DNA from: a virus
Taxonomy: Duplodnaviria > Heunggongvirae > Uroviricota > Caudoviricetes
DNA length: 64,000 nt
Strand: one strand, 5' to 3'
Virus record (IMG/VR): IMGVR_UViG_3300028584_001242
Below are positions 1 through 11,340 of the stretch, in pieces. Numbering within the stretch: the first letter of the stretch is position 1; the number at the start of each line of letters is the position of its first letter. Under the pieces are notes generated by a model, which had not been told where the DNA came from, searched no databases, and was given only the letters and a program-made list of their open reading frames with translations. A program made the position numbers and the translations under genes.

Positions 1-1214
1 TTGAGTTTTCACCAACAGGTGAAATAATAACAGCCAATGAGAAGTTTTTAAATTTAATGGGATACTCCCTAAATGAAATAGTAGGGAAAAAACATTCTAT
101 ATTGTGTGACAAACTATATGCAAACAGTGCTGATTACAAAAAGTTTTGGAATAAGTTAGAAGCGGGTGAATATATATCTGATATGTTTAAAAGACTTGAT
201 TCAAAACAAAAAGAAATATGGCTAGAAGCTTCTTACAATCCTATATTTGATAATAACAACAAAGTAGTAAAAGTAATAAAATTTGCAAACGATATTACTA
301 GATATGTAGAGGAAAAAAATGAAGATAAAAGTAAATTAGATGCCCTTAATTCATCTATGGCTGTTATTGAGTTTACACCTGAAGGTATTATTTTAAATGC
401 AAACAATAACTTTTTATCAACAACTGGTTATACATTAAAAGAAATAGTGGGTAAACATCATAATATATTTTGCGAAAAAGCGTATAGTCTTCATTCAGAA
501 TATAAAAGGTTTTGGCAAGATTTAAAAAATGGGCAATTTTTTAATGGTCAATTTAAAAGATTAAATAAACAAGGTAATGATATATGGCTTGAAGCAACTT
601 ATAATCCAATAAGAGACGAAAATGGAAACGTAGTTAAAATTGTTAAATTTGCAAGTGACACCACAAAATTAGTTAACCAATTAGATGCTCAAAAGAAAAG
701 TGCAGAACTTGCATTTTCAATATCAAATAATAATAAAGAAACAGCACAAATCTCAGTAACTACAATAAATGAAACAAATAATGAAATGACAAACATTATA
801 AAATCAGTCAGTGCCACAGAGATTCATTTAAAGTCATTAGAAAAACAATCTGAAAAGATTAAAATGATATTAAATGCTATATATAAGATTGCAACACAAA
901 CTAATTTGTTAGCGTTAAATGCTGCAATTGAAGCCGCCAGAGCTGGAGATGCTGGAAGAGGTTTTGCAGTAGTGGCTAAGGAAGTAAAAGAATTATCAGG
1001 CAATACAAGTGACTTAGTTAAAAGTATTTCTGAAATAATAGAGGAAATTAATAAAGAAACAGAATGTGCGGTTAAACAAATGGAAAGTGTAACTCAGAAC
1101 ACAGAAAGAAGTGTAACATTAATGATTGAAGTCGAGCAGTTAGTGACTGAAATAAGTATCGGCTCTGATAAAATATTATCAGCTATTGCCCAATTATCAA
1201 AAGAGTTAAGTTAA
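1..1214 (+). CDS. methyl-accepting chemotaxis protein with tandem PAS domains (aerotaxis-like), 5'-partial
   Basis: The reading frame is open from nt 3, upstream of the listed ATG at 57. Repeated PAS blocks ([43 protein letters not shown]) precede a C-terminal MCP signalling motif [32 protein letters not shown] terminator follows. Confidence 0.8.
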
Positions 1215-3140: not shown

Positions 3141-3169
3141 AGTATATCAAGAAGCGGTTTATCGGTCAA
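3141..3169 (-). promoter_or_regulatory. sigma70-type promoter module A: TTGACC-N17-TATACT plus conserved leader TATCCCATCAAAACGAAAC
   Basis: Minus strand: -35 box at plus 3164-3169, -10 box at plus 3141-3146, 17-nt spacer. Confidence 0.6.
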
Positions 3170-3336
3170 TCATTTTTTTTCAAAAACCTTACAAACAATT
3201 TAACCTACTGTTCGTTCATATTTAACATGATATTCAATCATCGAAGCCAACATGAAAAGAATCATGCACAAGCCGAAAGAGCCAACAAGCCATAATGGAA
3301 AAGCTTCAACTGAGAACCACTCAAAAGGTTTGCACA

Positions 3337-11188: not shown

Positions 11189-11340
11189 AATGTTAGTTCT
11201 CCGTTATTTGATGTTTCTATTATAGCACTTTCAGCCAAATTAGACAATAAAAACTTTCAAAAATCAGCCACTTGCAATCAAAAATAACAGGAGTATACTT
11301 ATAAATTAGATAGCAAGCTAACAATATAAAAGGTGATAAA

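Follow-up and report, generated by a model that had tools for sequence, protein, structure and literature searches.

A common sequence box round the probable transcription start of three predicted strong sigma70-type promoters in a phage-like genome

Three promoter modules and the genes they face

The DNA analysed is a single stretch of 64,000 nucleotides (hereafter the window, 38% G+C) that is crowded with short minus-strand ORFs, nearly all without a Pfam or PHROG match, and whose minus strand holds 54 predicted sigma70-like promoters and many intrinsic terminators. Three of these promoters, modules M1, M2 and M3, read TTGAC(C/A)-N17-TATA(A/C)T followed by NAHCMC-ATCAARACGAARC and face, respectively, the gene for a highly basic peptide, the genes for tRNA-Leu and tRNA-Met(CAU), and a tRNA-like gene (Table 1), as a preliminary description of this DNA had stated. 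The tRNA-Met(CAU) gene is probably co-transcribed from M2, no terminator having been found before 5558-5533, though its transcription might also begin at a weaker promoter-like site (5830-5803). The M3 leader ahead of the tRNA-like gene measures 40 nt. A second tRNA-like gene lies at 49668-49598 (minus strand); ARAGORN cannot determine the anticodon of either, one of the two scores below and the other above the Rfam tRNA gathering score, and each forms its own promoter-to-terminator unit.

Table 1. Positions of the promoter modules and of the transcription units that follow them in the window
Feature	Position	Strand	Remarks
M1 -35, TTGACC	3169-3164	-	preceded by A-tract gaaaaaaaatga (~3181-3170), UP-element-like
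M1 extended -10	3149-3141	-	TG 3149-3148, one base, TATACT 3146-3141; spacer 17 nt
M1 start box	3140-3122	-	discriminator TATCCC 3140-3135; probable start A 3134; ATCAAAACGAAAC 3134-3122
M1-driven gene, 44-aa highly basic peptide MQGSFGDAVERFRGGKKKDNEQAKYHKKDSEFRKRRRNRHQDAE	3087-2953	-	SD AGGAG 3099-3095
Intrinsic terminator of M1 transcript	2938-2915	-	GGCATCC-GAGA-GGGTGCC, then T-run; read from the sequence
M2 -35, TTGACC	6309-6304	-	A-rich conserved region upstream
M2 -10, TATAAT	6286-6281	-	spacer 17 nt
M2 start box	6280-6262	-	discriminator TATCCC 6280-6275; probable start A 6274; ATCAAGACGAAAC 6274-6262
M2 leader, ~155 nt, probable start to tRNA-Leu	6274-6119	-	91.5% identity to relative
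tRNA-Leu(UAA), M2-driven	6118-6034	-	
tRNA-Met(CAU)	5743-5667	-	probably co-transcribed from M2
M3 -35, TTGACA	12065-12060	-	M3 hexamers 12/12 to consensus
M3 -10, TATAAT	12042-12037	-	spacer 17 nt
M3 start box	12036-12018	-	discriminator AATCAC 12036-12031; probable start A 12030; ATCAAGACGAAGC 12030-12018
M3-only 5'-terminal hairpin, ATCAAGA-N13-TCTTGAT	12030-12004	-	-4.6 kcal/mol
tRNA-like gene, M3-driven	11990-11917	-	ARAGORN anticodon undetermined; Rfam tRNA 26.4 bits, below gathering score
Intrinsic terminator of M3 cassette	11899-11879	-	

Megablast of the region against INPHARED returned tRNAs as the sole matches, and the window thus has no close sequenced phage. The only T4-like genes seen in it are two paralogous T4 Rnl1-type RNA ligases (27949-26816 and 30028-28907, minus strand, 1 kb apart), whose closest homologue in an isolated phage shows 42% identity and comes from the Ralstonia jumbo phage RsoM2USA; one further homologue is labelled as belonging to a Silvanigrellaceae MAG. 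A PAS-PAS-MCP protein, soluble and chemoreceptor-like, is encoded at the left end (57-1214, plus strand) on the strand opposite to nearly all else, and an exact-sequence look-up of this protein gave no match.

With hexamers matching the consensus at 10/12, 11/12 and 12/12 positions for M1, M2 and M3, and with a spacer of 17 nt throughout, the modules are near-consensus sigma70-type promoters that carry a conserved block directly after the -10 hexamer, which agrees with the preliminary description. That description took the block, of some 19 nt, to be an initial transcribed sequence conserved in all three modules. Hexamers and block are indeed present in each, but the copies have 1, 0 and 2 mismatches (M1, M2 and M3) to the 18-mer ATCCCATCAAGACGAAAC and their likeness ends at about +13, with 17-nt spacers that differ between modules. 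A C-1/A+1 context is found 6 nt after the -10 hexamer in M1, M2 and M3, and because the usual geometry places the start ~7 nt after the -10 hexamer, with a pyrimidine at -1 and a purine at +1, the most likely transcription start is the A of CATCAA (3134, 6274 and 12030), an assignment made from the 6-nt discriminator spacing together with the C-1/A+1 context. The first six bases of the 19-mer are therefore the discriminator by spacing, and it is the other 13 nt that would form the conserved transcribed part. The three predicted strong sigma70-type promoters have in common a 16-base stretch round their probable start, which we refer to as the box. When the window was searched with the 18-mer at up to 3 mismatches, exactly M1-M3 were recovered against 0.08 sites expected, and none of 100 shuffles reached three. 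The discriminators (TATCCC, TATCCC and AATCAC) are not of the G+C-rich kind that goes with stringent control of stable RNAs.

The full box occurs in only 3 of the 54 predicted sigma70-like promoters of the minus strand. Partial boxes, ATCAAATAACGG, ATCAAAACTC and ATCCGATACGAGA, accompany -10 hexamers at 11224, 35827 and 58446, respectively, and another, CACATCAATTAG, lies in a transcribed region at ~2870-2859. In the 58446 region (minus strand) lies a promoter whose hexamers are 12/12 to consensus, TTGACA-17-TATAAT; the sequence after it, ATCCGATACGAGATCC, is a diverged box that includes a small hairpin (CGAGA...TCTCG). A TTGAC -35 element is present in all three box promoters versus 7 of the 51 others in the window (Fisher P = 0.005), and the box promoters contain a single T over +2..+10, where the remaining 51 average 2.6, and 75% purine compared with 53%.

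The M1-driven peptide belongs to a family of extremely basic peptides of 41-45 residues (MQGS..D..E.F...K..D....R..RR.RH), with two copies in the window (3087-2953 and 49817-49686, minus strand), at least six in a relative and more in three other large viral contigs (L002, L225-L231). The basic peptide has no family match in Pfam or PHROG. In many cases a tRNA or tRNA-like gene lies no more than ~20 nt downstream of the peptide gene, giving peptide-tRNA operons. Paralogues are found both with and without the box, their promoters having been swapped, so that promoter type appears exchangeable and not bound to a gene family; a tie of the box to the peptide genes was rejected on the same grounds.

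The box in related genomes, other phages and bacteria

Three JGI metagenome contigs are syntenic with the window at a nucleotide identity of 66-82%, M1 and M2 included. Orthologous M1 and M2 promoters were compared in four-genome alignments, in which coding DNA is likewise 66-82% identical. No position of M2 differs between -1 and +18, and in M1 the same holds from -1 to +22 save for A/G at +6, while the 17-nt spacers agree at only 3-4 positions and -6..-4 vary (TAA, GGG, AGG); C-1 is found in 8/8 of the orthologous sequences and C-3 in 7/8. The preliminary description had named absence from related genomes as a finding that would speak against the block, and the block is both present and conserved in them. 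The whole M3 cassette of promoter, tRNA-like gene and terminator (~12100-11830) is absent from one relative, L232, relative to which the M3 unit is an insertion between a gene end and a terminator that both genomes have. Between its probable start and tRNA-Leu the M2 transcript has 91.5% identity to the relative, compared with 66-77% for neighbouring coding DNA. A stop interrupts the only shared reading frame of this leader, Rfam holds no match to it and its folding energy is not unusual (157 nt, z = 0.08); its conservation may reflect a non-coding RNA or a processing element. Since whole leaders are conserved in orthologues, conservation among orthologues does not separate constraint on the DNA from constraint on the RNA.

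On a 290-kb IMG/VR contig the box is present in 13 copies or more, before peptide genes that have tRNAs behind them, before a tRNA-Leu and before unrelated ORFs. The contig stems from the same JGI sample (3300024308) as a 1.54-Mb contig with which it has sequence in common and of which it is probably a fragment. The syntenic relatives of the window (L232, L233, L234 and L236) are JGI metagenome contigs of 677,834, 1,859,102 and 1,539,155 bp, and the stretches sampled (the 64-kb window and 21 kb in L236) consist of nearly nothing but ORFans with phage-style promoter and terminator punctuation. Window and relatives may belong to a phage-like replicon of giant size or to a huge island.

Across IMG/VR viral contigs the box consensus is C-3 N C-1 A+1 TCAA R ACGA N A+12, with the register locked at 6 nt after the -10 hexamer. 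The pattern TATAMT-NNNCNC-ATCAANACGA occurs at 67 IMG/VR loci in 30 DNA-similarity clusters, the register being fixed by design in this and all other collection scans, and 50 of the 67 loci have a -35 element matching at no fewer than 4/6 positions 16-18 nt upstream. Two composition-matched scrambles gave 9 and 10 loci, with a -35 element of that quality at 2 and 1 of them, respectively, and a third, in which CAT was kept and +3..+10 were permuted so that its expected probability equals that of the real box under a position-specific background from 126 unselected consensus promoters, gave 4 loci (patterns AACANGATC, GAACNATCA and TACANGAAC). When only the core was searched for and no -10 hexamer imposed, copies lay either in coding DNA or with a -10 hexamer exactly 5 nt before C-1, and none of the promoter-context copies found in this manner (L003 among them) had any other -10 spacing. 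Positions that the pattern leaves free are also biased among 47 non-redundant foreign copies: +12 is A in 39/47 and +6 is a purine in 41/47, the sequence being random beyond, T stands at -34 in 38/47, and -45..-39 is A-rich. A looser pattern, TNATCNCATCAANACGAA, was discarded, as it gave mostly chance matches in coding DNA and only ~6 of its 69 hits had a -10 hexamer.

Known phages that have the box in intergenic DNA include RaK2-like jumbo phages, KVP40-like Vibrio phages, Moraxella phages and Pseudomonas phage phiPMW, whose copy carries a sigma70 promoter annotation. A search of 185,579 bacterial genomes (596 Gb) with the TTGAC-N18 plus box pattern gave 13 matches where fewer than 0.5 would be expected. 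They lie in Moraxellaceae and several Clostridia MAGs, one of them directly before a tRNA-Leu and others before ordinary metabolic or transport genes. The genes that follow the box are unrelated and include ORFans, HicA-like proteins, ABC-transporter proteins and tRNAs. As judged from these genomes, the box is specific neither to the genes behind M1-M3 nor to the lineage of the window, and its presence in strong promoters of unrelated phages in one and the same register suggests that it is probably a part of the promoter rather than a gene-specific leader signal. It is, however, a rare subclass and not a universal optimum, given that none of the 126 unselected consensus phage promoters contains the full box and 3/126 contain ATCAA.

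Two further features were seen among the foreign copies. In several box promoters (L147, L162, L166, L180, L200, L203 and L204) the 17-bp spacer is a near-perfect, operator-like palindrome, as in TTGACA-GGGGATcacgtATCCCC-TATACT; such spacers are not significantly enriched, at 7/43 box promoters (16%) versus 10/126 ordinary consensus promoters (8%, P = 0.10). At two unrelated HicA-like toxin genes, L168 and L170, the box makes up nearly the entire 5'UTR and the 5'-end CAUCAA is complementary to the start-codon sequence UUGAUG, which would allow pairing between 5' end and start codon.

Relation to known promoter systems

That the transcribed region can matter for the function of strong phage promoters has long been known, and work from the Bujard laboratory in the 1980s reportedly showed that the transcribed region adds to the strength of T5 (N25-type) promoters. 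The strong early coliphage promoters T7 A1, T7 A3 and lambda PL, which host RNA polymerase recognises, resemble the box promoters in their near-consensus hexamers, their C-1/A+1/T+2 start and their purine-rich, T-poor initial transcribed sequence. As read from the sequence records, T7 A1 reads CC-ATCGAGAGG and is identical to the box at 7/9 positions over +1..+9, T7 A3 reads CAC-ATGAAACGACAG (CACATGAAACGACAG) and lambda PL reads GAGCAC-ATCAGCAGGACG (GAGCACATCAGCAGGACG); all three are very similar to the box form CMC-ATCAAGACGAGA. The window box differs from these T7- and lambda-type strong early promoters in being a specific sequence of 12-13 nt, not a mere composition, that is found at a fixed register in many unrelated genomes.

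Early promoters of T4-like phages have an A-rich upstream tract, sigma70-like hexamers and a preference for C at -3..-1, and stand before ORFans and tRNA genes (PMC1524935). The box promoters of the window are alike in all of these respects, and some promoters of KVP40-type phages have the box itself; the published T4-like early consensus, however, ends at the start site, whereas the box runs past it. Strong phage promoters with important transcribed regions and C at -3..-1 are thus known, and what appears to be new is the specific sequence of the box and its recurrence. We found no description of or name for the box in the literature, where searches with the literal sequence gave nothing relevant.

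The PeSLs (promoter-early stem-loops) of T4-type phages are mobile regulatory cassettes, characterised by a terminator-like stem-loop placed just upstream of an AT-rich tract and an early promoter, and by long, near-identical copies (PMC4122927). Our modules are like them in being repeated promoter units in an ORFan-rich region and in their link to an indel, the M3 cassette, whose absence from L232 provides an indel junction of the PeSL kind. They are unlike PeSLs in that the identity between M1, M2 and M3 consists of the promoter elements and 13 nt, and in that a stem-loop lies upstream of M2 alone (AGACCT...AGGTCT, 6399-6380), where the terminator hairpin of the upstream gene lies (~6399-6375); no PeSL-type stem-loop was seen upstream of M1 or M3.

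Two candidate identities were set aside in the course of these comparisons. The 'phage-specific promoter' of pf16, CATCAACACAG..., is an unrelated motif that abuts start codons, and a partial likeness by eye to a DnaA box or IHF half-site, confined to M1 and M2 or to ATCAA, is lost in the wider consensus.

Possible roles of the box

We favor, at a probability of about one half, the reading that the box is a downstream core-promoter element, spanning approximately -3 to +12/+13 of an extended sigma70-type promoter, that sets the transcription start and aids fast escape. Its single-base register with the -10 hexamer, its span from -3 to +12, its independence of the downstream gene and its link to the tightest-binding promoters together argue for an element that acts with RNA polymerase at initiation. 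A span of -3 to ~+12 fits the polymerase footprint and the length of the RNA at escape. Anatomy, fixed register, conservation in orthologues, recurrence and gene independence are all observed properties of the box, and from these we infer its effect on escape, initiation and promoter strength. In the mechanism that we envisage, a host-type RNA polymerase holoenzyme would bind the near-consensus UP-like tract, -35 and -10 elements, and C-1/A+1 at exactly 6 nt after the -10 hexamer would fix the start at the A of CATCAA. An initial transcribed sequence with one T, 75% purine, GA at +6/+7 and no -10-like hexamer would then keep pausing and abortive cycling to a minimum, such that even promoters of very tight binding would be cleared fast and initiate very frequently. 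In the window the box accompanies the three promoters whose -35 elements are best, and these would make short products in high demand, namely the mRNA of a tiny basic peptide, a tRNA operon transcript and a tRNA-like RNA.

The initial transcribed sequences conform to published rules of escape. Escape is slowed by T-rich starts, by TG or TA near +5/+6 and by -10-like hexamers, and is sped by GA or GG near +6 (PMC5961368). M1, M2 and M3 have A+1, are purine-rich and T-poor over +2..+10 and lack a pause motif, with GA at +6/+7 in M2 and M3, and the window box thereby displays the fast-escape features of Heyduk & Heyduk 2018 (few T, no TG or TA at +5/+6, GA at +6/+7). Since no T follows +2 (none is present in +3..+13 of M1, M2 or M3), there can be no -10-like or TANNNT hexamer and no sigma-dependent pause element, and a pause of the lambda PR' type was rejected. 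These rules do not account for everything: C+3 and CG at +8/+9 of the box run against the background preference, no single consensus sequence was found by Heyduk & Heyduk 2018 (PMC5961368), and the generic escape rules do not explain why the exact box sequence recurs, which leaves room for a specific recognition event. The forms of the box for comparison with the 262,144-variant escape data set of these authors are TCAAGACGA and TCAAAACGA. We put forward only tentatively, as a possibility with the odds somewhat against it, that the box is a discrete, portable downstream promoter element recognised sequence-specifically, be it by RNA polymerase while it selects the start and begins transcription or by a conserved factor that acts on the nascent 5' end, and that it was either selected independently or spread among some bacteria and phages whose hosts differ widely.

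Orthologue conservation, which extends over whole leaders, would equally suit a role of the box as RNA, that is, as a 5'-terminal AUCAAGACGA that is poor in U and in RNase E sites, sometimes forms a hairpin arm and serves stability, ribosome standby or processing. Hairpins starting at +1, with an exact downstream complement of 6 nt or longer, occur in 6/51 non-redundant copies against 0.7 expected (maximum of 200 shuffles, 4), M3 RNA forms such a 5'-terminal hairpin, and in several foreign copies the box takes up nearly all of a short 5'UTR ahead of the SD, or could pair with a UUGAUG start region (L168, L170). The enrichment of 5' hairpins hints that the RNA 5' end matters as well. As a general explanation we nevertheless consider an RNA role unlikely: a shared structure had to be rejected, with no hairpin at M1, -1.0 kcal/mol only at M2 and -4.6 kcal/mol at M3, and 38 of the 51 copies have none at all. 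The box precedes untranslated RNAs and mRNAs alike and is found in Proteobacteria-type as well as Clostridia genomes, between which RNA decay machineries differ, and its conserved part includes the untranscribed C-3 and C-1, in a register locked to the -10 hexamer. The preliminary description had suggested, among others, a processing signal or an RNase site. The unrelated genes behind the box across many genomes argue against a signal for tRNA or peptide processing, and we found no RNase site or structure common to the three copies. In scans with Rfam covariance models only tRNAs passed the gathering score, the three leaders remaining without a match even at E <= 1.

That the box might be mainly a recombination substrate, carried on mobile PeSL-like promoter cassettes that are spread or homogenised by recombination or gene conversion, is quite unlikely in our estimation, even though L232 and the window differ by an indel that comprises the M3 promoter with its tRNA-like gene and terminator, the window with its 54 promoters, many terminators and predominance of ORFans is hyperplastic-like, peptide paralogues have swapped promoters with the box present or absent, and PeSLs have been described in KVP40 and nt-1 (PMC4122927), phages that also have the box. 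What M1-M3 have in common, promoter parts plus 13 nt between differing spacers, is too short for efficient homologous recombination, an upstream stem-loop exists at M2 only, and the box is found in ~30 unrelated DNA clusters and before bacterial genes. The breadth of this distribution bears equally on a further reading, which we hold to be very unlikely, in which the box is an operator and a protein, whether a host regulator or a shut-off or switch factor of the phage, binds -3..+12 to block or activate transcription. The box overlaps the start, a position typical for repressor sites, and its restriction to a subset of promoters is regulon-like; yet it has no dyad symmetry as read from the sequence, an operator does not need a single-base register with the -10 hexamer, and a phage-specific factor cannot explain an element found in phages of Vibrio, Klebsiella/Escherichia, Moraxella and Pseudomonas and in Clostridia MAGs. 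The early-to-middle switch factor invoked in the preliminary description is likewise disfavored, the box being in register in unrelated phages and some bacteria before unrelated genes.

If the box measurably raises output or fixes the start, the bacterial promoter model would gain a defined element downstream of the -10 hexamer, and the transcripts meant for the largest amounts in this genome would be those of a tiny basic peptide, of tRNAs and of a tRNA-like RNA. On the same condition the box could serve as a ready 'insulating' start when strong promoters are engineered, and as a flag for annotating very strong and probably early promoters where phages are uncultured. Should the specifically recognised, portable element prove real, it would constitute a new bacterial promoter module beside the UP element, the extended -10, the discriminator and the core recognition element. 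For the window itself, the picture is of transcription units built from exchangeable promoter cassettes.
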